The notes beneath the pieces were generated by a model. It did no database searches. It had not been told where the DNA came from and worked only from the letters and a program-made list of their open reading frames with translations. 31,665 nt of DNA, from NCBI GenBank assembly GCA_037134055.1, contig JBAXMY010000001.1, positions 1 through 31,665 of the forward strand. The letters are read 5' to 3'. Of this stretch, positions 5,263 through 31,118 are shown in pieces (the stretch's first letter is position 1; the number at the start of each line of letters is the position of its first letter). The DNA is from an archaeon (lineage in GTDB: Archaea > Nanobdellota > Nanobdellia > Pacearchaeales > GW2011-AR1). A program made the translations under genes and the position numbers.

Positions 5263-6270
5263 CTAGAACAGTGTCCTCTGCGCACCTTGCTTTTTTAATT
5301 CCCTCAACTTTTCCAATTGCTTTTCCACTCTTTCCAGAGAAAACTCATGTCTATCAACAAGAATTTCCTTTACCTTCGCCTCATTAATATTGGGAAACTC
5401 GACTTGCAATTTTCTATCCACATTGGGCTTCTTGAATATCTCAAATATATCCTGCCAATTGAAATCCATTCTACCTTCAACTTCCTTGAAAATGGAGAAG
5501 GGATATTTTTTCTGCTGTACCAAAGACAGAGCCTTCTTTGGTCCTATTCCCCTCACTCCTCCAGGATTGAAGTCCGTTCCAACGAGAATTGCCAGACAGA
5601 TTAGCTGATCGCTATCAATTCGTAGTTCATTCAATACTTTTTCATATTCTATTATCTCTGGAGAAATGTATATCGTTCCCGAACGCGTTTTCCTTGTCCT
5701 AGATAGAGTCACATTCTGAATAAGACGAGAACCAATAACCAGCGCATCATAATCCTGCGAAGCTACGGCATATGCCTGTCCATCCTGCACAAGTGCAGAT
5801 GCCTGCATTTCTCCTTCTCCAGGAGCTTGCACAACTGCAATACCCAACGCCTCAAGTAATTCCTTACTCTCGGCAATCATTACACTATCAAGCCTGCTCA
5901 GAGAAGCACCATACTTACCCATGGCATCCACATCTTCCTCATCCTTTGCCTCTTCATACTTCTCACGCATTGCCGCTCTTGCCTCTTGGCGCATTTCCTG
6001 CGTCTTTCCCTTCAGAGGATTATACGCTCCATCAAATACATAAATTAATTTTATTCCCTCAGCAAGCAAAGCCATATTCCTATAGAAAAGTCCTGACAGA
6101 TGACTTGTTACCCTACCCTGAGAATCCATCAACGATGTGCCGTCTGCCTGTCTTATTGAAGAAAGAAACTGATATAGCGCATTAAATGCATCTACAGCAA
6201 TCGTCTTTCCCTTTAATTCCTTAAACTCTATTGCCTTCCTAGGAACAATGTCTCCTATCTGTAAGCCCAT
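5263..6270 (-). CDS. fen: Flap endonuclease 1
   Basis: MGLQIGDI start, AVDAFNALYQFLSSIRQADG, VFDG, EGEMQA, SQDYDAL, LVGTDFNPGG H3TH, C-terminal QRTLF. TATAAATA at -29 supports ATG 6270. Confidence 0.97.
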   Translation of the reverse strand: MGLQIGDIVPRKAIEFKELKGKTIAVDAFNALYQFLSSIRQADGTSLMDSQGRVTSHLSGLFYRNMALLAEGIKLIYVFDGAYNPLKGKTQEMRQEARAAMREKYEEAKDEEDVDAMGKYGASLSRLDSVMIAESKELLEALGIAVVQAPGEGEMQASALVQDGQAYAVASQDYDALVIGSRLIQNVTLSRTRKTRSGTIYISPEIIEYEKVLNELRIDSDQLICLAILVGTDFNPGGVRGIGPKKALSLVQQKKYPFSIFKEVEGRMDFNWQDIFEIFKKPNVDRKLQVEFPNINEAKVKEILVDRHEFSLERVEKQLEKLRELKKQGAQRTLF

Positions 6271-6291
6271 TACTATATAGGACAACCAGGT

Positions 6292-6299
6292 TATTTATA
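6292..6299 (-). promoter_or_regulatory. TATA box for fen, overlapping the upstream stop codon
   Basis: TATAAATA at -29..-22 from ATG 6270. Confidence 0.75.
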
Positions 6300-7266
6300 G
6301 CTTATGAGCCTTTCTTGAACGCCAGAAATAGAAAAATCCTGCAATTAGGCATGCAACAATCAGAACGATGTAGCTTCCCCCGGTATTTGACGCATCAGAC
6401 ACTACAAACCCAGTAAAATTGCCCATAAAAAACAACAAAGAAAAAGAAACAAAGAAGATTGCAGCCGTAGCAGCAATTTTCTCCAAACCCTGTCGTTTAG
6501 TACTTGTTTGCTCCCTTCTTTCAGGCATGCCATAAATGGGATCCGCTCTAAAATATCTATATCTCAGCTCCTTATCAGACATTTCAAATAATTCGGGGAG
6601 TTTTACCTTTGACAAATCCAGTTTTGATGCGTATTTGTAAGGCCTATAATGGATAAGCATCCTATTTCGCACATCCACATCTTCCTCAAAACCCATCGCA
6701 CGTGCAACATCTGAAAGTTGTTCTGCCAATTTTTCATTTCCACCCTTTCTTGCCTCACCCACCGTCTTTAAAAGAACACGATATTTATTTCTGATAAATG
6801 AAGAGCCACGTTCATTCAAAACCTTACCGAGAGAGTCATAAACTCTATCGAATGAGGGCTCACCATTCGGAAATAGTTTCTTTCTTTTTTCTTCAGGTAA
6901 TCCTAGATAAGCTATTTTTCTCCCAACAAATCCCAGAAACTCTTCAGAATGAAGTTCCTTAGTATTGATATAATGCCCAAGATTACCTACTTTCTTTGCT
7001 CTGACAAAATGTGCCAGCTCTTCACCCATTGATTCCGTAACATCTCCAACACCCATTTCACGATTAACTGCAATTCTATTCTTTACCATGTTGTAGTCCA
7101 TTACTTTTTTCTTACTAAACACCAATTTTGGAAACTGATTCTCTGGAATGCCAAATTCCTGGGAAAATATTGCTTTCTGTTCATCATACACCCTTTGGAC
7201 AAATGCCTTGCCTTTATTATTTAACTTAGAAATTGGCTTACTGCCTTTAATAAAATCTTCTTCCAT
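6295..7266 (-). CDS. EExxH zincin-like domain protein with C-terminal two-TM tail
   Basis: E82-E-L-A-H86, S-E-E109-F, H206-x-x-x-Y210; homologous by eye to the C-terminus of 9931..13689. Tail: LEKIAA...GNFTGFVV...FFYFWR. TATTTATA at -29. Confidence 0.85.
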   Translation of the reverse strand: MEEDFIKGSKPISKLNNKGKAFVQRVYDEQKAIFSQEFGIPENQFPKLVFSKKKVMDYNMVKNRIAVNREMGVGDVTESMGEELAHFVRAKKVGNLGHYINTKELHSEEFLGFVGRKIAYLGLPEEKRKKLFPNGEPSFDRVYDSLGKVLNERGSSFIRNKYRVLLKTVGEARKGGNEKLAEQLSDVARAMGFEEDVDVRNRMLIHYRPYKYASKLDLSKVKLPELFEMSDKELRYRYFRADPIYGMPERREQTSTKRQGLEKIAATAAIFFVSFSLLFFMGNFTGFVVSDASNTGGSYIVLIVACLIAGFFYFWRSRKAHKL

Positions 7267-7321
7267 CTAATCAATAGATAAAAGCAATATAAATATGTTT
7301 TCTAAATAGAATGATAATTAT

Positions 7322-7864
7322 TTAATTTCCTACAGAATTATAAAAATCAAAAACACCCTGTTCAACTCTGCCTGAAGGCACTTTCTTAACAACAACATCT
7401 GGAGACAGAACGATTTCACCAGCCAATTTACTCCGCCCATGTAATATTGCAACTGGAGCATTCTTTGTTGAAGCGCGATAATCTTCAAACATTTTAAGAA
7501 GTTCTGCCACATTATTTGCAACATACCCGGATAGAGCACAACTGTCATCAGAACGCACATCCTCCATGTATGGATGTCTTGAATCTTGATAGAACCTAGA
7601 TTTTGGCATGCTCTCTCCCCTTTTCATGGGCATGAATGAAGCATAAAATATCTGATTCTCCCTCGTATAGTCGGAAGGACCTTTGTGTCCTTCATATCTT
7701 ATAACAACATTTCTTTCACCAGCTTCCAAAGCTTGTCTTGCAAAATAGTCCGATATAACATCACTAAAGAAAAATTTTACGCCATGACTTCTGCCAGTCT
7801 GATCTGGTGCTTCCAGTTTACTTGGCTTGCCTTCTCTTGATCTTTTTGATTTGCCCTTGGTCAT
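7322..7864 (-). CDS. Hypothetical soluble protein
   Basis: 180-aa ORF, ATG 1 nt after the upstream stop; no motif recognised. Confidence 0.75.
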   Translation of the reverse strand: MTKGKSKRSREGKPSKLEAPDQTGRSHGVKFFFSDVISDYFARQALEAGERNVVIRYEGHKGPSDYTRENQIFYASFMPMKRGESMPKSRFYQDSRHPYMEDVRSDDSCALSGYVANNVAELLKMFEDYRASTKNAPVAILHGRSKLAGEIVLSPDVVVKKVPSGRVEQGVFDFYNSVGN

Positions 7865-7865
7865 T

Positions 7866-8399
7866 TTATTTTAATCCGTCAAACTGAGCAATGAAATCTC
7901 TCAGTGACTTCCCATTTAATATTTCTTCTAAAAATTCTTGAGGAACTTCATCTTCTTCCAACTCACCAATCATTATTCTTCTAAAAGAAGGATCTCCGAC
8001 CATGGCTCTAACAACAGTTTTAGCTTTATATTTATCAAATTTTCCAGATTCCAGAGCCCTGAGCCTTTCCCCCACATCAACTAGAGAAGCAACCTCAATC
8101 ATCGCACCCATCTCTGAAGTTGATCCTGGAGTTTTACCATTTTCATATATTTTCAAGAATTCCTTTGAAACGAAAGGCTTAACACGATCCTTAAATCCAG
8201 CTAATACTTCAGATTTATCTGGAAGTTCAAATGTTTTTAGAACATCTTCCCTATATCTGTGTCCAACTGGAAGTTTCGAAGCTCGATCTAATCGTTCATA
8301 GATGTAATCCGCATTCTGCATACCCTTCTGAGAACATCGATATACAACTCTAGGGCTCAATACCTTACTATCTACCAAATCTAACAATTCAGTTGTCAT
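7866..8399 (-). CDS. Hypothetical soluble, acidic, helical protein
   Basis: 177-aa ORF, ATG 1 nt after the upstream stop; no motif recognised. Confidence 0.75.
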   Translation of the reverse strand: MTTELLDLVDSKVLSPRVVYRCSQKGMQNADYIYERLDRASKLPVGHRYREDVLKTFELPDKSEVLAGFKDRVKPFVSKEFLKIYENGKTPGSTSEMGAMIEVASLVDVGERLRALESGKFDKYKAKTVVRAMVGDPSFRRIMIGELEEDEVPQEFLEEILNGKSLRDFIAQFDGLK

Positions 8400-8400
8400 T

Positions 8401-8652
8401 CTAGTTATGTCTCCTGTCTTTTCTGTTCAATTCGGCAAGAGTTGCGGAAGCAATTATTGCAGAACCGAGAGTTGCAATTTCATAAAAACTACCCATTCCC
8501 CTATGATTATATACATTGCCAATGGAATACTTTGCACCTTCAACGGGAGAAGAGTCTCTAATCGTATTAACCACCCTAACTGCCAAATCTACCGTTCCGC
8601 AAGCTATGCTAAGGCCTATAACCGTTGCAGCCAATGTTTTTCCTAGTCCCAT
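8401..8652 (-). CDS. Small protein with two hydrophobic helices (paralog of 8778..9038)
   Basis: 83 aa; GTVDLAVRVVN...YNHRG; AGGA 5 nt before the ATG and TTTAAATA further upstream. Confidence 0.75.
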   Translation of the reverse strand: MGLGKTLAATVIGLSIACGTVDLAVRVVNTIRDSSPVEGAKYSIGNVYNHRGMGSFYEIATLGSAIIASATLAELNRKDRRHN

Positions 8653-8777
8653 GTTTTTCCTATAAAAATCTCACTAAATGCCAATATTTAAACCTTTCTA
8701 ATTGTTACCACCACGGAGTAACATGATATATGAATATTATTAAATTGGATAAAAAATATAAAAAATTAAAGAATCGT

Positions 8778-9038
8778 TCAGTATTCCCTCTTTTTGCTTG
8801 TAGCATTGATGGCAATACTTGCACCCGCAACTGCAGTAATCAAACTAAGTCCATTTCCATGAAGACCTTCATGCTTGTATGGGTTCAAAGAAGCCTTTTC
8901 CCTGAATTCCTCAGCCGGCATTTCATATCTATGGGCATGATCCTGAACCATGTTGTAGGTCCTTACTCCCAGGTCGATTGTACCAGTTGCTAGCACATAT
9001 CCTAGAGCGCCTATTGCGATGTTTTGTAGTGTGTTCAT
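8778..9038 (-). CDS. Small protein with two hydrophobic helices (paralog of 8401..8652)
   Basis: The track start at 9080 is TTG. ATG 9038 (MNTLQ) follows AGGAGG at 9058-9053 and aligns with the paralog: GTIDLGVRTYN...YKHEG. Confidence 0.75.
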   Translation of the reverse strand: MNTLQNIAIGALGYVLATGTIDLGVRTYNMVQDHAHRYEMPAEEFREKASLNPYKHEGLHGNGLSLITAVAGASIAINATSKKREY

Positions 9039-9173
9039 TGTCTTTTTTTCATCCTCCTTTCTACTTCTCCCAGGTGACAAAGATAGATGTTAATTTACCC
9101 TAAAATATAAGGGTATCACATGTAAAACCTATACCTCCTCGGCCCTGGAAAGGTCCAATAAACACCAACAAAC

Positions 9174-9181
9174 TATAAAAA
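9174..9181 (+). promoter_or_regulatory. TATA box for the pilin-like / giant-protein operon
   Basis: AAAC-TATAAAAA lies at -29..-22 from ATG 9203, not from 9188. Confidence 0.7.
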
Positions 9182-9202
9182 TCCAAAATGCCCATAGAAT
9201 GT

Positions 9203-9934
9203 ATGAATAAACAAGGTCAGATAGCTATTTTTGTTATTGTTGCCATAGCCGTCGTCATTATAATTATGGGCCTCTTCCTATTTGTGAATCGAGGACCTTC
9301 TACAAATGCGTCCTTGTCTTCAGATACCTCAAAAGTCAAAGAATATGTACAACAATGTATTAATCAAAGACAAATTGACGCCATCAGGATTGTTGGATTG
9401 CAGGGAGGATATATAGTTCTACCTGACAACTATTTAGATACGGGGCTCTACCAAGTTGCCTATGGACAATCTTTGGGCCAAAATACTCTTCCTTCAAAAG
9501 AAAAAATTGCCAGAGAAATATCATCCTACATTGAGTATACGTCCCCTGGATGCATAAATCAAGATAAATTTTTCACAATGGATATATCGCCCGGAGAAGC
9601 AAATGTAAACACAACAATAAGCAACGGAAAAATAACTTCCAGAATGATATTTCCAATATCTGTCACAAAGGAAAACTCCACTTCAATTGTTGGAGCAAAT
9701 TATGAATCCACTGTTAATGTTAGATTCGACGAAATTTACTCTTTCGCACAGGGGATTGTCAAAAAACAGATTGCTGATTCTAAATATATCGATATGACCT
9801 ATCTTTCCAGTTCAAAGTTTAAAGTGGGCATCGTACCATTTGATAATAAAACTACTACTTTTACGATAATTGATGATTCCTCTAGGATTGAAAATATATC
9901 CTATTCCTTCCAATTTGCGAGCGTGATAAAATGA
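9203..9934 (+). CDS. Type IV pilin-like (class III signal peptide) surface protein
   Basis: MNKQG/QIAIFVIVAIAVVIIIMGLFLF followed by a helical then beta-rich body with two Cys; ATGA overlap with the next gene. Confidence 0.7.
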   Translation: MNKQGQIAIFVIVAIAVVIIIMGLFLFVNRGPSTNASLSSDTSKVKEYVQQCINQRQIDAIRIVGLQGGYIVLPDNYLDTGLYQVAYGQSLGQNTLPSKEKIAREISSYIEYTSPGCINQDKFFTMDISPGEANVNTTISNGKITSRMIFPISVTKENSTSIVGANYESTVNVRFDEIYSFAQGIVKKQIADSKYIDMTYLSSSKFKVGIVPFDNKTTTFTIIDDSSRIENISYSFQFASVIK

Positions 9935-12900
9935 TAATGAAAAATAAATTCTTAGTGATATCATCCATTTTCATATTTATAATAATCGTTCAGATTGGCA
10001 TAATGAGCGCAGCAACAACTAGTACAACTCCAGACCCACAAACTACACCTTCAACTCAACAAACTTCTGCAACACAAACAAAAACAACTTCGAATGCAGA
10101 TGACACAATTGTTCCTGAAGGATATACTAAAAAAGGAGACCTCTACGAATGCAGGGGTGCCAAAGACCCGTTAGTATTAAATGGCATCAAGGTTTATGCT
10201 GAAAAGGGGAGCACCATCAAGTATTCAAAGGGAAATTTTGAGATTACTGGAAAAATAAATCAGATAGAATCTGGAAAAACAGTTCTAAAAGATATAACTG
10301 ATGCACAGCTGCAGATAGTATCTAATGAAATCGTCATGGCATCATTCACTGCCGCAGAGAAAGGAGATTACTCTTTTAATTACAACGCACAAGATTTTAA
10401 GTTCTCAGTTGACAAAGGCGGCAAAGTGTATTTCAACCCAAGGGTAAATGAAATTGGAGGAAAAGATACCTCTTTTGATTTCACGAATGCCAATAAAGAA
10501 ACTCAGTCCTTCAAATCTTCTGGAAACTTTGCAGCCAAACTGGAAAATGGAAGAGTGTCCAGAGCAGCCACTGATAGTGGAAGAATTGAATTTACAGACA
10601 GTAGTGGGAAAAAATATTCAGCTCAAGACATATACTTTGATGGAAAACAAGATCTTTCACAAACAAAGGGCTCTGCCATTTCAATAAACGGAAATGAAAT
10701 CCTCTTTAAAGGAATGGCGAGGTTAGATGGCACAGAATCATCTAAGATAAGTTACTCTGGTTTAAGCTCAGATATGTTGACAAAATATGATTCAGAAAAG
10801 AATTCATTTGAATGTGCCCAGGGAAATGCAAAGATTACAAATACGGGAAAGGAATTTCTTCTTGAAAACGGACAGATTAAAACACCAACTGGAGAACCAT
10901 CTAAAGATATCAAAGAAATGCAATTGGCCTATGCAACAAAATCCACTCCAAGCCAGAATCTGGCAGTTTACAATGATATGGATGGCGTAAAGATATATGC
11001 AGAAAAAGACGGACAAACCAAAGCAGGAATACGAGATGGACAATACATTACTTCATATGGTATTTTCGCAACACAAGAGTCCATGGCCAATTATGGTCAA
11101 CAAGTACTGGATAATCAAAGAAAAATTCTAGAAGATAAAATCTCTTCAGTCAGTAACGTGTTAGATACTAATTATGATGCTCTTTCTCCTTCTGAAAGAA
11201 ATGCTTTGAAATATCAATTAGCTGCTCTATATGCAGAAGGAACAACGGATTTTGATGACTATGGAAAAGAGAAGTATAATCAACTTCAATCATTAACAAA
11301 GGAATTGGCAGCCAGTCCTGAATATTCCTCCCTTGCCTTAGGTTTAGAAAGAAATGCGCAATTTAATCTTGGTAAGTACGAGGATGTCTATGAAAACCTG
11401 CAAGAGAGTATGAAAAACGCAAAGGATGTAGCAACCAGAACACAAGTTGATGCAGACTTCGCCAGATATTATACAGATATGCGAAACCCTAATGCAGACC
11501 CTCCAAAGGCATACACTTATTTGTCCGATGCAGTTCGTTCTGATCCAAACAATAAAGTATTAAAAAATGCCCAAAGACAAATGGCGATTGCACTATTCAA
11601 ATATGATGGCGAAATTGCTCAAAATATGCAAGAACAAGCAGCAAGTTCTTATGAAACTGATCAGCTGGTTACTAGCAATGATGAATATGCGGAAATGTGG
11701 AAAGCACTTTCGCCAACAAACTATAAAATTGGTTTGACTTCGGCATACTTAGCTCTTGGAACAGATTATATGCAGAATAAAGAAATAAACTTTGAGAATT
11801 TCATGAAATCTCAAAGCGAAAACAAACGCGGAGATGATTATGTTTCATATCTATTGGGAAAAAAAGAAAATGGAGATTACAAATATTCTTTTGAGGAAAT
11901 TATAAACTTTAAGCCGAGAGACTACATGGAAGTGCTTGGAGTTTCCTCAGACAAGGCTATTGCAATCCAAAGTTATGTGGCTAACACTCTCCAAACAAAT
12001 AATGGACAATTTATTAAAAGTGGTGGAGCTGGTAAGTTTTCAGCCGATTTCGTGAACGATCTTTCATTTTTAGATAGTTGGGGGGTAAAAGCGTTAGGAG
12101 GTGCTACATCTCCTCTCGCCACTACAGCTACACTTGGCCCAGTAGCCTTAGCTCCTGGAAGTTTTGGGATATCTGCAGCTACCGGATGGAGAGCAATTAC
12201 GGGTGCAAGCGAGATTACTGGTGGAACAACAGTTTCAGAAGCATTGATATCTGGTTTAGCCAGCAGATCAGCTTTGGCAAATGGTGCGATTACTTCAATA
12301 TCTGAAGCTAGCGCTGCGATGAGTAACGCGGGCAAGAGCTTATTGATAACTAAAGCTAGTTTTGGCAGTACGGCCGCAGACCTAACAGTTGGAGCTGCAG
12401 GTCTTGCAGGAGATGTTGGGGTAGGTACCGCTGCAGGTCTTGCTATTCAAGCTACTGTGCCAGGTCCGGCTGGAGAAATGTTGTCTATGCTTGTTGTTCC
12501 GGGACAGATGAAGGGTCTTTCTAAGGAAGGTGCATCCTTGCTTAGTTCTGAACTCAAACAAGAAGCTCGAGCAGGTCTAAAAGATATAATTCCAGGCACA
12601 AAACTCGGCGAGTTTAGTCTAGTTTTCGAAGATGCCTCTGCTGCTGAAAAAATGTTAAAAAATACTAAAATATTCGGCGCTCATACATCAGATCCAATGA
12701 GAGTTTATCAAACTGGTGATATGGAACTTCTTTTGACCGAAATTGCTGGTCAAGATAATGCGCTCTCAGCAAAATTCTATTCTAGGAATCTAGCCAACCT
12801 AGATTCTGTCTCGGGTTTAACAAGTGCAGAAGCGAGAGCTGAAGCATTTACAGCTAGTAGAATGCTTGATGGTCCAAACGGAGAATTGAATCGTGTACTT

Positions 12901-13689
12901 TTCGCACAAGTTACTGATGATGCTGCAGCAACTGCTGAGAGACTTTGGGAACCAATATTATCTAGAGGAGCCGCGCAAGCAGACGCAGTTTCAGTCAAAC
13001 AATTAGGAGTGGAAGGTGAAAAAAGAGTACAAGTGCTATACGAGTTAATGAAGTTACGATTTGCAGAGAAAACTGGTATGCCTGTTGAATCAATGCCTAA
13101 TTTACAGTTTGGTGGGCCAACCGCATATAGTCGAATGAGTCATAGAATGACGATTGATTCAAATCAACCAATGTCAGAGATTGTGGAGAGCTTAGCAGAA
13201 GAGCTTGGACATTCCATACGTTGGGTTAAAAATCCAATCCCATTTAAACCTAGAACTGGAGAAGTTTCTGATGAGTTTGTTGGCTGGATGAGTAGAGAGC
13301 TTGCTTATGAAGATCCATATTTGAGAAAGTTTTTCGTTCGTGAACCTTCGATATCTTACGAATTTAATGGAAAATCGTTTAAAGAACTCATTAGTGGATA
13401 TTCAGAAGAGATAAGATATTTGAAGGGGAAAAAAGTAGAATATACAGAACGTCTATCTGAACCGGACATTTCTCTAGCTGACAAAGTAGATTATGGAAAA
13501 CGATTAAAAGAAACAGAAAAAGACTTAATAGATGAAGTTAGAGGTTTTAACCACGTTATAGGTTATTGGTCTAGTGGTAGTTTGCGTATAACAGACTTAA
13601 GTGCTCAAGATATACGATTATTATACGAAACATCCGGACAAAACTTAGTTTCTAAGTACATTCAACCATATATTAAATATGCAAAATAA
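9931..13689 (+). CDS. 1252-aa exported modular protein with C-terminal EExxH zincin-like domain (polymorphic-toxin-like)
   Basis: Signal peptide, Thr/Gln/Pro linker, beta-rich region, helical TPR-like region, Gly/Ala hydrophobic segment (aa ~717-858), then E1090-E-L-G-H1094, S-D-E1115-F and H1208-x-x-x-Y1212. Confidence 0.85.
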   Translation: MIMKNKFLVISSIFIFIIIVQIGIMSAATTSTTPDPQTTPSTQQTSATQTKTTSNADDTIVPEGYTKKGDLYECRGAKDPLVLNGIKVYAEKGSTIKYSKGNFEITGKINQIESGKTVLKDITDAQLQIVSNEIVMASFTAAEKGDYSFNYNAQDFKFSVDKGGKVYFNPRVNEIGGKDTSFDFTNANKETQSFKSSGNFAAKLENGRVSRAATDSGRIEFTDSSGKKYSAQDIYFDGKQDLSQTKGSAISINGNEILFKGMARLDGTESSKISYSGLSSDMLTKYDSEKNSFECAQGNAKITNTGKEFLLENGQIKTPTGEPSKDIKEMQLAYATKSTPSQNLAVYNDMDGVKIYAEKDGQTKAGIRDGQYITSYGIFATQESMANYGQQVLDNQRKILEDKISSVSNVLDTNYDALSPSERNALKYQLAALYAEGTTDFDDYGKEKYNQLQSLTKELAASPEYSSLALGLERNAQFNLGKYEDVYENLQESMKNAKDVATRTQVDADFARYYTDMRNPNADPPKAYTYLSDAVRSDPNNKVLKNAQRQMAIALFKYDGEIAQNMQEQAASSYETDQLVTSNDEYAEMWKALSPTNYKIGLTSAYLALGTDYMQNKEINFENFMKSQSENKRGDDYVSYLLGKKENGDYKYSFEEIINFKPRDYMEVLGVSSDKAIAIQSYVANTLQTNNGQFIKSGGAGKFSADFVNDLSFLDSWGVKALGGATSPLATTATLGPVALAPGSFGISAATGWRAITGASEITGGTTVSEALISGLASRSALANGAITSISEASAAMSNAGKSLLITKASFGSTAADLTVGAAGLAGDVGVGTAAGLAIQATVPGPAGEMLSMLVVPGQMKGLSKEGASLLSSELKQEARAGLKDIIPGTKLGEFSLVFEDASAAEKMLKNTKIFGAHTSDPMRVYQTGDMELLLTEIAGQDNALSAKFYSRNLANLDSVSGLTSAEARAEAFTASRMLDGPNGELNRVLFAQVTDDAAATAERLWEPILSRGAAQADAVSVKQLGVEGEKRVQVLYELMKLRFAEKTGMPVESMPNLQFGGPTAYSRMSHRMTIDSNQPMSEIVESLAEELGHSIRWVKNPIPFKPRTGEVSDEFVGWMSRELAYEDPYLRKFFVREPSISYEFNGKSFKELISGYSEEIRYLKGKKVEYTERLSEPDISLADKVDYGKRLKETEKDLIDEVRGFNHVIGYWSSGSLRITDLSAQDIRLLYETSGQNLVSKYIQPYIKYAK

Positions 13690-13714
13690 ACAATAATAAG
13701 CAAAAATAACAACC

Positions 13715-13722
13715 TATAAAAA
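13715..13722 (+). promoter_or_regulatory. TATA box for polB
   Basis: AACC-TATAAAAA at -29..-22. Confidence 0.75.
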
Positions 13723-13743
13723 TCTCCCCAACCATCTAGAAGA

Positions 13744-16140
13744 ATGACGAGCATTAAAGGATTCATTGTGCAGGCAGACTATCAGATAATTGACGACAAA
13801 ACCTATGTACAACTATTTGGAAGACTGGAAAATGGCCAATCATTTGCCACAGTCAACAAAGTCAAGCCATACATGTTCATAGCTGAGAAAGAACTAAAGA
13901 AAGCCAACAAACTTCTCAGCAAATATGAAACAGAAAAAACCTCGTTGAAAACATTCGCAGGGGAAAAAGTCATAAAAATAAGTCATGACCTTCAAGCAGA
14001 GCTAGGAAAACTAGCATCCGCACTTCACAAACTTGATATTCCAACCTATGAATCGGATATCAAGCCACATACGCGATTCATAATTGACCAGGACCTTTTA
14101 GGAAGCCTAGAAATTCAAGGCGAATACGACCCTTCTGAGAAAGTCGACCGCGTCTATAGGGAAGCTAAAATCAAGCAAAGTGATTACAAACCAAATTTGA
14201 AAACTCTATCCCTGGATATAGAAACTGACGGGCAGACAAAGAAACTTCTCTGCATCGGCTTGTATGCACCAGGATATAAGCAAACATTTATGATTACCAA
14301 CCAAAAACTGCGGGAAACCGTTTCATGCAAGAATGAAACCGACTGCCTTCTCAAGTTTAAAGAAGCAATAAACAAATTTGATCCAGACATTATCACCGGA
14401 TGGAATGTCATTGACTTTGATATGAAGTACCTACAAGATTTATTCAAAGAAAATAGAATTCCGTTTGACATTGGAAGAACGAATGCAGAAGCCAAGACAA
14501 GAATTGAAGATAACTTCTTCCGTTCTTCAAGTATGGACATTCCTGGAAGAATGGTCCTTGATGGATTGAATATGATAAAAGACCCATTCATCAAAGAAGC
14601 CCCATCAATAAAAAATGCAGAATTCGAATCCTATAAATTAGAAGATGTCGCCCAGGAAATTCTAGGAAAAGGAAAGATTCTCAAAGGAAAGGGAAGACAC
14701 GATGAAATCTCTCAGCTCTATAAAAAAGACCAGCAAAAACTTGTTGACTACAACATGAAAGACTGTGAACTAGCCTATGAAATTCTTGAAAAAACAAAGA
14801 TGATTGACCTGGCAATAGAGCGTTCGCAATTGGTGGGCCTAGAATTAGACAGGCTAACTGCTTCCATTGCCGCATTCGACTCCCTGTATATAAGAGAAGC
14901 AAGGAAACACGGCTTAGTCTCTCCAAGCACAGTATACGGACAAAAAGATGAACGTCTCAAGGGAGGATATGTCTTTTCTAGCAAGGCAGGAATATTCCGT
15001 AATGTCCTAGTCCTAGACTTCAAATCCCTATACCCTTCAATTATCTGCACATTTAACATAGATCCGGCAGCTCACATTAAAAATAAAAAAGAACTGAAGA
15101 AAGAAAAAGATCCCGTAGAATCTCCAAATAAGGAATATTTCAAGAACCAGGAAGGCATTTTGCCAGGAATAATTGGCAAACTTCATTTTGCAAGAGAAAA
15201 AGCAAAGCAAGAAAAACGAGAACTCTCCAGCTACGCAATAAAAATAATCATGAACTCATTCTGGGGTGTTCTTGCTTCACCAAACTGCAGATATTTCGAT
15301 TTCAACATGGCCAGCTCCATTACGGCATTCGCAAGATGGGCAATCCAAGATACGGCGAAGGAAATTGAAAAATTAGGGTATAAAGTAATTTACAGTGATA
15401 CGGATTCCGTATTCATAGAAACTGGCCTTGACAAAGAAAAGGCAGGCAAACTTGGATATGAAATACAGAATACAATCAATAAGTTCTACCATGACTACGT
15501 GCAGAAGCATTTCAAGAGAAAATCTTTCCTGGAATTGCAATTTGAAAAACACTTCCTCTCTTTAATGATTCCAGGTGTGAGAATGAAGCCAGCAAAGAAG
15601 AAAGCAAGCAAAGAAAAGGAAGAGCCGGAGAAAGAAGTAGAAAAGGTAGCTGCAAAGAAGCGTTACGCCGGACTTCTTTGGAAAAATGGAAAAGAAGAAC
15701 TGCAAATTACTGGCCTGGAAGCAATAAGAGGAGATTGGACAGAAGCCGCGCAGGAATTCCAGAAGGAATTATTGATGAAAACATTCCACAATGAACCTGT
15801 TGAGAAGTTTATTGCGCAATATGTAAAAGACATTCGTGCAGGCAAGATGGATAAACTTCTCATTTACAGAAAATCAATTAGAAAAAATCTGGCAGAATAC
15901 ACGAAGATGACTCCCCCACACGTAAAAGCAGCCCGTCTACTTGATGTATTAGATTCAAATGTAATAGAATACTATATCACAACATCAGGTCCAGAACCAA
16001 TTCAAAAACACACTCACCCTCTGGATTATGACCATTACATAACTAAGCAAATCGCCCCAATTGCCAATCAAGTTCTCTCATTGCTAGGAAAATCCTTTGA
16101 GGATTTATCACAGCCAACTAAACAGGCTAAATTGTTCTAA
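13744..16140 (+). CDS. polB: Family B DNA polymerase, bacterial Pol II-like, with proofreading exonuclease
   Basis: ExoI DIET, ExoII WNVIDFD, ExoIII YNMKD; pol motifs DFKSLYPS, KIIMNSFWG, YSDTDS, KKRYAG; Pol II-like GLEAIRGDWT, PPHVKAAR and GPEP...LDYDHY; C-terminal QAKLF. Confidence 0.97.
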   Translation: MTSIKGFIVQADYQIIDDKTYVQLFGRLENGQSFATVNKVKPYMFIAEKELKKANKLLSKYETEKTSLKTFAGEKVIKISHDLQAELGKLASALHKLDIPTYESDIKPHTRFIIDQDLLGSLEIQGEYDPSEKVDRVYREAKIKQSDYKPNLKTLSLDIETDGQTKKLLCIGLYAPGYKQTFMITNQKLRETVSCKNETDCLLKFKEAINKFDPDIITGWNVIDFDMKYLQDLFKENRIPFDIGRTNAEAKTRIEDNFFRSSSMDIPGRMVLDGLNMIKDPFIKEAPSIKNAEFESYKLEDVAQEILGKGKILKGKGRHDEISQLYKKDQQKLVDYNMKDCELAYEILEKTKMIDLAIERSQLVGLELDRLTASIAAFDSLYIREARKHGLVSPSTVYGQKDERLKGGYVFSSKAGIFRNVLVLDFKSLYPSIICTFNIDPAAHIKNKKELKKEKDPVESPNKEYFKNQEGILPGIIGKLHFAREKAKQEKRELSSYAIKIIMNSFWGVLASPNCRYFDFNMASSITAFARWAIQDTAKEIEKLGYKVIYSDTDSVFIETGLDKEKAGKLGYEIQNTINKFYHDYVQKHFKRKSFLELQFEKHFLSLMIPGVRMKPAKKKASKEKEEPEKEVEKVAAKKRYAGLLWKNGKEELQITGLEAIRGDWTEAAQEFQKELLMKTFHNEPVEKFIAQYVKDIRAGKMDKLLIYRKSIRKNLAEYTKMTPPHVKAARLLDVLDSNVIEYYITTSGPEPIQKHTHPLDYDHYITKQIAPIANQVLSLLGKSFEDLSQPTKQAKLF

Positions 16141-20129: not shown

Positions 20130-21004
20130 TTATTTCCTTTTGAAATAGATAAAACTAGCTATCAAACCAATTGTAAATAAAATTCCGCCTGTCAAATTAC
20201 TCGATGTTTGATTTAAACTGGCAATTACATTACCAGTTATATTTGAAGATAAAAAAAATAAACCTGCGATGAGTCCTGTAACGGCAATTATAGAAAGAAA
20301 GTGAGATGCTAAATTTGCATTTTTCATTCCCACCTTGCGCTTTCTTTCATCTATCGCCTCTTTCATTCTTCTAACTTGTAACAAACCACTGTCTATTCTT
20401 TTTTCTAGTTTTTCATTCTCTTTTCTTCCATCTGCAGTTTGTGGTAAAAGATTAATCGTGTTTATAGCATGTTCATAGCAGTATAGCGCTTTGTTAAGGC
20501 GTCCTTGATCCATGTAACGTTCTCCAGCATAACAATAGAAGCCTGGTGTAGATTGGCTTTTTTTCATTTCGAGTCTTTGGGCTTCGACGAGGTCGTTATC
20601 CGCACCTTTTGTTTTTTCGAGTTTTTCAAGAATTCTTCTAAAGAAACCTTTTTGTATCCCAACTAGCTCATCCGAACTACTGACATTATACGTAGGATTA
20701 GCACTGTCTAAATCATGGTAGCTATGCCTTCTATGTTCTGCTCTTCGAAGCTCTCTTCCAAGTTTTTGTCTGTCATAAAGGTTCAATTCCTGCGGGTCAA
20801 TTGATTTTAAATGGTTCACGGCATTATCTGTAAACTCTTGTGAAAAATATGGCATATCTTTGGCCTCTTTAATTAATTTCCTAACTCGAGGAGATAACCT
20901 TTTTTCTTTTTTATTCATCTCTTTTATAGCAATCATCGATTTAAATTCTTTTGCAAGCGCGCCGTCGGGTGGGGGTTGGTAAATACTGAGCCAGCCATAA
21001 ATTC
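20073..21004. repeat. Inverted repeats flanking the 20130 gene
   Basis: GAATTTATGGCTGGC (20073-20087) and its exact reverse complement (20990-21004); GACGGCGC (20105-20112) and GCGCCGTC (20959-20966); GGGTGGGGG present as a direct repeat at 20097 and 20967. Confidence 0.85.
20130..20918 (-). CDS. Helical (TPR-like) protein with C-terminal two-TM NITGNVI tail
   Basis: AATTTAAA at -29 favours ATG 20918 (MNKKEK). YAGERYMDQGRLNKALYCYEHAI is TPR-like. The tail resembles that of 6295..7266. Confidence 0.85.
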   Translation of the reverse strand: MNKKEKRLSPRVRKLIKEAKDMPYFSQEFTDNAVNHLKSIDPQELNLYDRQKLGRELRRAEHRRHSYHDLDSANPTYNVSSSDELVGIQKGFFRRILEKLEKTKGADNDLVEAQRLEMKKSQSTPGFYCYAGERYMDQGRLNKALYCYEHAINTINLLPQTADGRKENEKLEKRIDSGLLQVRRMKEAIDERKRKVGMKNANLASHFLSIIAVTGLIAGLFFLSSNITGNVIASLNQTSSNLTGGILFTIGLIASFIYFKRK

Positions 21005-31044: not shown

Positions 31045-31118
31045 TGATCGCGCCAGGATTTGAACCTGGGACCCCTGCCTTATCAGAGCAGTGCGCTACC
31101 GGGCTGCGCCACGCGATC
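31045..31118 (-). tRNA. tRNA-Ile(GAU), intron-less, CCA not encoded
   Basis: GATCGCG/CGCGATC acceptor stem, GCGC D-stem, anticodon arm CTGCT-CTGATAA-GGCAG, T-arm CCAGG-TTCAAAT-CCTGG, discriminator A. Confidence 0.97.

Follow-up and report, generated by a model that had tools for sequence, protein, structure and literature searches.

Polymorphic toxin systems of bacteria carry two hallmarks, the Pretoxin-HINT domain and tip cassettes, and zincin-type tips (Tox-MPTase1-5) are an established class of their toxic ends in the 2012 survey by Zhang, de Souza, Anantharaman, Iyer and Aravind; archaeal systems are rare in that survey and confined to some methanogens and haloarchaea (PMC3482391). We found no published description of such a system in DPANN archaea or of the carrier family described here, the survey of Makarova et al. 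2019 (mBio) lying outside this comparison. The DNA analysed here, which we call the window, is a complete 31.7-kb contig (JBAXMY010000001.1, 31,665 nt) from an archaeon of the order Pacearchaeales (GW2011-AR1, assembly GCA_037134055.1) with a genome of 1.0 Mb that is 68.6% complete. Between its divergent genes fen and polB lies an island of about 7.4 kb (positions 6295-13689), in which a pilin-like gene is followed by the gene of a giant protein of 1252 amino acids (aa), and which an earlier note, made from the sequence alone, had interpreted as a polymorphic effector locus.

Our preferred reading, to which we assign a probability of about one half, is that the giant is a surface-displayed modular effector comparable to a polymorphic toxin carrier, and that its tip may have been recruited from a housekeeping family of proteins with an EExxH motif. 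The resemblance to the bacterial systems (PMC3482391) lies in the secreted giant, in the constant body and variable tips of its family, and in the presence of Pretoxin-HINT (PT-HINT) and cassette-like open reading frames (ORFs) in relatives. The differences are a carrier body without known repeats (RHS, filamentous-haemagglutinin or any other), a pilin-like gene that invariably accompanies the carrier, a DPANN archaeon as host and, in this copy, the lack of Hint, downstream immunity gene and cassettes. The island and its flanking genes comprise the following features.

5263-6285, minus strand: fen (flap endonuclease; Pfam XPG_I 1.3e-20, XPG_N 1e-15), left anchor of the divergent fen-polB pair
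6295-7266, minus strand: free-standing EExxH protein of 323 aa with a predicted gluzincin fold; domain at residues 1-250, two-helix membrane tail at residues 264-314
7322-7864, minus strand: putative gene, an ORF of 180 aa without assigned function
7866-8399, minus strand: putative gene, an acidic ORF of 177 aa without assigned function, abutting the 180-aa ORF
8401-8652, minus strand: small hydrophobic protein, paralogue 1, 83 aa, helix-loop-helix (translation, hydropathy)
8778-9038, minus strand: small hydrophobic protein, paralogue 2, ~86 aa (hydropathy; the longest frame would start at 9080)
9039-9202, no strand: divergent intergenic region with A/T-rich TATA-like boxes, read directly from the sequence, facing both operons as putative promoters
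9188/9203-9934, plus strand: pilin-like partner of 243/248 aa, class-III-type signal MNKQGQ followed by a hydrophobic helix
9931-13689, plus strand: the giant, 1252 aa, its ATG overlapping the stop codon of the pilin-like gene (ATGA)
9931-10005, plus strand: N-terminal signal/anchor of the giant, residues 1-25 (hydrophobic 7-25; hydropathy 2.79); related giants begin likewise
10156-12003, plus strand: carrier body of the giant, residues ~76-691, beta-rich then helical, the portion common to all related giants
12073-12510, plus strand: Gly/Ala/Ser/Thr-rich, charge-poor segment of the giant, residues ~715-860 (composition, hydropathy)
12928-13686, plus strand: C-terminal tip of the giant, residues ~1000-1252, EExxH domain with a predicted gluzincin fold, E-E-L-G-H at residues 1090-1094
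13744-16140, plus strand: polB (family B DNA polymerase; Pfam DNA_pol_B 1.6e-37), right anchor, beginning 55 nt past the stop codon of the giant

All elements that the earlier note had listed for the island are thus in place. Seven ORFs fill the 7458 bp between fen and polB: a run on the minus strand (323, 180, 177, 83 and ~86 aa) and then, on the plus strand, the pilin-like gene and the giant. The island is real and not an assembly artefact, since both of its junctions are bridged by contigs of the probable source run, a second sample carries it at an identity of at least 99%, and fragments of it also occur in a lake metagenome from another study.

Judged by composition and hydropathy, the giant runs from the signal through a Ser/Thr/Pro/Gln-rich linker, a beta-rich part, a helical part and the Gly/Ala/Ser/Thr-rich segment to its C-terminal region. 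The body matched nine other giants in BLASTP (E 1e-10 to 2e-17), and a profile built from six giants matched residues 99-442 at E 5.7e-36 (envelope 76-691). A search of 60 relatives with the whole giant returned nothing, weak matches of the N-terminal domain probably being missed with so long a query, and an Atlas search with the giant gave nothing usable. Starting from the partner, we found eight further distinct loci with sufficient room, and a giant ORF lies directly downstream in all eight; the sources are metagenomes and two named genomes, one a Nanoarchaeota metagenome-assembled genome, the other Pacearchaeota RIFOXYB1_FULL_29_20. Where complete, the related giants measure 1165, 1246, 1357 and 1977 aa; others are cut short by contig ends. 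Two more (1702 and 1522 aa) were found in genus g62, which belongs to the same family. The genomic contexts of these modules differ from the one seen here, an example being a position beside pyruvate phosphate dikinase. Taken from the sequences, the pilin-like gene and the giant form a predicted two-gene surface module, apparently translationally coupled, that is conserved in and specific to Pacearchaeota/Nanoarchaeota.

The homologues of the partner (34-41% identity) have N-termini reading K-R-G/S-Q, also K-K-A-Q, followed by a hydrophobic stretch, and the partner in the window reads K-Q-G-Q where they have K-R-G-Q, K-R-S-Q or K-K-A-Q. With archaeal type IV pilins (class III signal) it shares the short basic N-terminus, the Gly/Ser/Ala followed by Gln and the hydrophobic helix. 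It differs from them by the uncharged residue at position -2 of its K-Q-G-Q, by a globular part (two conserved Cys, I-D-A-I-R-I-V-G-L-Q-G-G-Y) that matches no Pfam pilin family, and by a gene that is not linked to pilus assembly genes. Of the type IV pilus ATPase/TadC system for which the earlier note suggested looking, ATPases and TadC-like proteins are encoded in the genome on other contigs, together with a prepilin peptidase: Peptidase_A24 on C89, T2SSE (assembly ATPases) on C38 and C5 and T2SSF (TadC-like) on C86 and C16, none of them linked to the island. Of the 251 genomes of the order, 240 carry the partner family; a single genome has as many as 10 copies, and some members are fused into proteins of ~630 aa. 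The genome studied here has five copies, and behind at least four copies other than that of the island lie large secreted proteins for which no relationship to this giant was detected. Two such regions (C3:7347-17061 and C39:3951-8591) carry pilin-like genes followed by secreted proteins of 1312, 569 + 833 and 666 + 633 aa; two of these proteins and an 819-aa protein in locus L048 end in a similar, Cys-containing way (...K-C-x-D-x-x-G-N-E-P...C...).

At the other end of the giants the sequences diverge. In three related giants the sequence breaks off ~60 positions into a Hint domain, and one has a contiguous Hint followed by ~350 aa. Near the truncated giants lie separate ORFs with a hydrophobic N-terminus, positions 55-137 of Pretoxin-HINT (37-53 bits against a cut-off of 27.7) and unrelated tails of 180-300 aa. 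The giants that end within Hint (L042:4583-8660; L045:8691-20193, the same as L052 in RIFOXYB1_FULL_29_20; L041:1057-5130) carry its first half as C-F-L-A-G-T ... V-T-M-T-F-V-R-K ... stop. The second half (T-x-E-H-P-F ... V-H-N-S) stands on ORFs that begin pilin-like with M-K-K-R-G, and in L052 two of these ORFs are frameshifted relative to L045. This Pretoxin-HINT looks naturally split, and its halves could join, or exchange tips, outside the cell. The 1702-aa giant (L061:3514-8622, plus strand) has a sub-threshold PRTase-CE match (23.9 bits against a cut-off of 27), and the 1522-aa giant (L064:9315-13883, minus strand) ends in ...G-G-G-H-I-E-I-F-R...P-L-N-M-V-Q-D-L-I-S-Q-L, which is HicA-like by eye only and gave no Pfam hit. 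In the comparison of C-termini that the earlier note proposed, related giants do differ: they end in Hint/PT-HINT or other tips, and some lie beside second-half PT-HINT ORFs with variable tails. With an N-terminal carrier region conserved in at least nine giants, differing C-terminal domains and PT-HINT second-half ORFs near some of the loci, the carrier family has the design of a polymorphic toxin, in which the N-terminal body stays constant and the C-terminal tip varies.

The tip of the giant in the window and the free-standing 323-aa protein share a domain whose family we collected by a full HMMER profile search of 1.84 billion representative proteins. It comprises 91 clusters at E ≤1e-3, 23 of them at ≤1e-10, from archaea and bacteria. 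Members are mostly free-standing and 220-350 aa long, and a few have N-terminal extensions (longest 711 aa); many archaeal ones share with the 323-aa protein a terminal pair of membrane helices joined by an x-T-G-x-x-V loop, ...P-D-Y-S-G-L is the end of many others, and the recorded names are 'hypothetical protein' of Pacearchaeota and Nanoarchaeia. The archaeal genes adjoin the RNA polymerase operon, LSM or a tRNA synthetase. Further genes of the family (P0017, P0102) lie in bacterial-type neighbourhoods with LigA, GatCA, RF1, FtsEX and NusA and encode proteins without the membrane tail, usually with the ...P-D-Y-S-G-L end, so that the family spans both domains of life.

Conservation was scored over 41 aligned members in the numbering of the 323-aa protein. 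Seven residues are invariant (E82, E83, H86, R89, E109, G112 and Y210; signature EExxH...E...H..Y) and five near-invariant (H206, R208, A213, R235 and F239). All 41 have EExxH in place of HExxH, that is, Glu instead of the first metal-binding His. The invariant residues make catalysis plausible. No member matched Pfam, and family profiles run against PDB sequences gave no match or a chance hit only. Searches of the island proteins in PHROGs and NCBIfam returned nothing significant, the sole hint being a phage metalloprotease family at E 0.089, and word-based searches for homologues of the 323-aa protein and of the giant each matched only the query itself.

The AF2 model of the domain of the 323-aa protein (pLDDT 91.6, pTM 0.86) predicts three strands, the EExxH helix and then the next helix, on which E109 would lie 23 residues past H86, and thereby contains the mixed sheet, active-site helix and Glu-bearing helix of the zincin catalytic fold. 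In an exhaustive structural comparison, nearly all of the top 45 PDB matches were gluzincin catalytic domains (Z 7-10), from groups M1, M3, M4, M13, M2, M32 and MATCAP; Foldseek and Atlas agree on the gluzincin superfamily, weakly, with Foldseek E-values above 0.04. The predicted fold and order of elements are those of gluzincins such as thermolysin (M4), the M1 aminopeptidases, M3 and M13, with a three-stranded sheet, a metal-motif helix and a Glu-bearing helix. What sets the family apart from them is the Glu for the first His throughout the alignment, and R89, H206, R208, Y210 and a C-terminal ...R-F-F-R...Y motif are specific to it. Going by the model, the shared domain is an undescribed gluzincin-fold family that has the Glu helix but Glu in place of the first His, and it is no known toxin family.

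The tip scores 134 bits against the family profile, which includes the tip sequence itself, and keeps the E, E, H, R, E, G, H and Y of the signature. In the family tree it sits, with uncertain placement, on a branch of 4.17 substitutions per site, where the median is 0.92. In an AF2 model of the giant the region ~1020-1250 has 10-residue block means mostly of 84-97, with two dips to 72-77, and the same topology as the domain of the 323-aa protein; residues 860-1000 appear as poorly predicted helices. These comparisons characterise the tip as a strongly and rapidly diverged copy of the EExxH domain.

Under the preferred reading, the giant would be exported via its N-terminal signal, held at the cell surface with its pilin-like partner and would present the zincin-like tip to another cell, be it host or competitor, where the tip would have hydrolase activity, most likely that of a metallopeptidase. 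The Gly/Ala-rich segment may be a flexible or membrane-active linker. The tip would have been recruited from the housekeeping EExxH family and would be fixed to the carrier without Hint, so that release by self-cleavage, as in the relatives, is improbable. Of the polymorphic toxin locus proposed in the earlier note, the architecture of the carrier family holds, whereas the window has no releasing domain, no immunity gene downstream and no cassettes. With the family showing a constant body and variable tips but these three locus features missing from the window, we describe a modular effector and not a proven member of the polymorphic toxins.

A number of results weigh against a modular effector. 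Beyond residue ~690 the profile gave no significant match between this giant and the others. No pre-toxin or releasing domain (PT-HINT, PT-VENN, peptidase) was found in the giant by Pfam, nor did Hint (PF07591) turn up in the genome, whose completeness is 68.6%. The 55 nt between the stop codon of the giant and the start of polB contain no ORF, so that no immunity-like gene follows the giant. The tip is changed at four of the near-invariant positions (R208, A213, R235 and F239) and could therefore be inactive. The neighbourhoods of the EExxH family look like housekeeping contexts, and with its genes otherwise in such contexts and its longest other member at 711 aa, nothing marks it as a toxin family. 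A predicted complex of partner residues 34-243 with giant residues 60-460 scored 0.26 against a mark of 0.32, which counts neither way on binding and leaves the pairing without a verdict. Finally, none of the RNA runs searched for the locus contained a match.

A more specific version of the modular effector, which we offer only tentatively and regard as somewhat unlikely, is that DPANN archaea possess a polymorphic-effector system of their own, with a pilin-partnered carrier and interchangeable tips, and that the tip in the window, a diverged member of a new EExxH metalloenzyme family common to ultra-small archaea and bacteria, is a captured neighbouring housekeeping enzyme, fused without Hint and used against hosts or rivals. 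If so, this copy would show how new tips arise. The locus extends a family of modular giant carriers resembling bacterial polymorphic toxins by a member whose tip is of another kind, may illustrate the recruitment of an effector tip from a housekeeping enzyme family, and defines what is predicted to be an undescribed gluzincin-fold family, of archaea and bacteria, with Glu for the first metal-binding His. How DPANN episymbionts attach, feed and fight is largely obscure, and most of their surface proteins are unannotated.

The main alternative, which we judge unlikely but worth serious attention, is a surface apparatus for adhesion or feeding that antagonises no one, in which the tip would be a displayed protease digesting the host envelope or environmental protein rather than a delivered toxin. 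DPANN cells are host-dependent, which suits such an apparatus, and so do the missing immunity gene and releasing domain. The breadth of the partner family described above, with several copies in each genome and large secreted proteins of other kinds behind the further copies here, likewise fits a general surface-protein system. Against it stand the Pretoxin-HINT and cassette arrays of the closest carriers, features typical of conflict systems; moreover, a branch as long as that of the tip is expected of domains that are in an arms race or newly recruited.

A classical polymorphic toxin locus, in which 6295-7266 would serve as a toxin cassette in reserve and the small ORFs, hydrophobic and soluble alike, would encode immunity proteins, has in its favour two copies of one domain within 7 kb, small ORFs nearby and a polymorphic carrier family. 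The evidence on the free-standing copy makes it improbable. The 323-aa protein and the tip match at E 2e-10 in BLASTP (28% identity over 109 aa) and at 27% over ~250 aa in a MAFFT alignment. The gene encodes a full-length protein with its own membrane tail (residues 264-314: two helices by hydropathy and an N-x-T-G-x-V loop), identity to the tip is only 27-28%, and there is no carrier-derived stretch that could guide recombination; no stand-alone cassettes able to recombine into the giant were found in the window. In the nearest genus (G009) the best EExxH member (P0012) lies directly downstream of fen, and the 323-aa protein is its sister in the tree with a support of 97/88. A second genus (G017) has a fen-linked EExxH copy with internal stops 1.1 kb downstream of fen. 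Because of its full length, own tail, low identity to the tip, lack of carrier sequence and grouping with G009, the 323-aa gene is no orphan cassette: it is a resident neighbour of fen with the commonest architecture of its family. The 'extra toxin copy' of the earlier note is thereby the usual form of a family found in housekeeping contexts, and the locus corrects an attractive but wrong reading of the second copy. Nor do the small neighbours hold up as parts of a toxin locus, as they lie on the opposite strand, upstream of the module, and have no relatives near any other module.

As for these small ORFs, the two hydrophobic proteins are paralogous (E 4e-6, 31% over 55 aa). The 180-aa and 177-aa ORFs had no hits in Pfam, PHROGs or NCBIfam and no match in relatives or at module loci, nor has the 180-aa ORF one in its own genome; the model of the latter was of low confidence, so that its Atlas look-up carries no meaning.

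The G017 copy (C42:3177-3752, L028) is broken by a TGA and a TAG, and may be a pseudogene or reflect sequencing errors. The tail of the 323-aa protein has counterparts elsewhere: this genome encodes at least five proteins, unrelated in other respects, with the same kind of end (6295-6510 and 20130-20350 in the window; C10:5623-6042, C13:3822-4340 and C44:1896-2579 elsewhere in the genome). In it, a helix leads into N-[LFI]-T-G-x-[VA]-[VI] and a short loop, after which come another helix and a basic terminus. This common tail contains an N-x-T glycosylation sequon and may be a membrane-anchoring or sorting signal.

A receptor-like transmembrane protein, with the Gly/Ala-rich segment spanning the membrane, the zincin-like domain in the cytoplasm and the N-terminal part outside as sensor or adhesin, would agree with the probable location of the free-standing family. 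The 323-aa protein has no signal peptide, and basic residues flank its helix pair on both sides, so that its domain is probably cytoplasmic. Segment 715-860 of the giant is also charge-poor (12 of 146 residues charged) and rich in small-xxx-small motifs. Its maximum hydropathy, at 1.3 over 19 residues against 2.8 for the signal, is too low for a membrane span, and its best stretches contain Asp or Glu. A cytoplasmic tip is unlikely on account of this weak hydrophobicity. In addition, a relative has a similarly placed segment with a P-G-P-x-G-E-x-L-S motif (a weak match at E 0.03, the profile match not being significant) that precedes Hint, and Hint must lie outside the cell to process an exported tip. 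We consider this topology very improbable.

The spacer between fen and polB was compared in 60 relatives, of which 56 yielded fen and 35 polB. In all 24 that have both genes on one contig the two are divergent, with gaps of 39-2234 bp (median ~606) as against 7458 bp here. In the two closest genera (fen 69-72% identical) the spacer measures ~0.55 kb and holds one small gene; the longer spacers of other relatives contain one to five small unrelated ORFs that differ between genera (L010, L011, L013-L016). The interval, which the earlier note had proposed to compare, is thus variable, and it seems that small accessory genes settle there in general. None of the relatives' spacer genes is related to the ORFs of the island, and on syntenic contigs of the three nearest genera no island gene was found except the 323-aa one. 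The module and the four small lineage-specific ORFs are an insertion in a spacer that is short in relatives and holds variable small genes. A lineage-specific insertion consisting for the most part of ORFans would also suit a remnant of an integrated virus or plasmid whose genes have no cellular role, which we deem highly improbable given that the window has no integrase domain by Pfam, a sole tRNA at 31045 that offers no target and flanking repeats at chance level only, that PHROGs gave no significant hit, that the GC content of the island resembles that of its flanks and that the module belongs to a chromosomal family found across the order.

Three minor observations concern the spacers. Judged by eye, a membrane protein of ~115-145 aa recurs in those of G033, G042, G044 and G051. 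In the island, an 87-aa Cys-rich frame (8730-8993, plus strand) runs antisense to the second small hydrophobic gene and, having no relatives, is probably no gene. A 19-nt element (C-C-T-A-T-A-A-A-A-A-T-C-T-C...) occurs at 8659-8677 and 13713-13731 with 17/19 identity, where about one such repeat is expected by chance; its copies stand upstream of the 8730 frame and of polB and probably represent a shared TATA/BRE-like promoter sequence.

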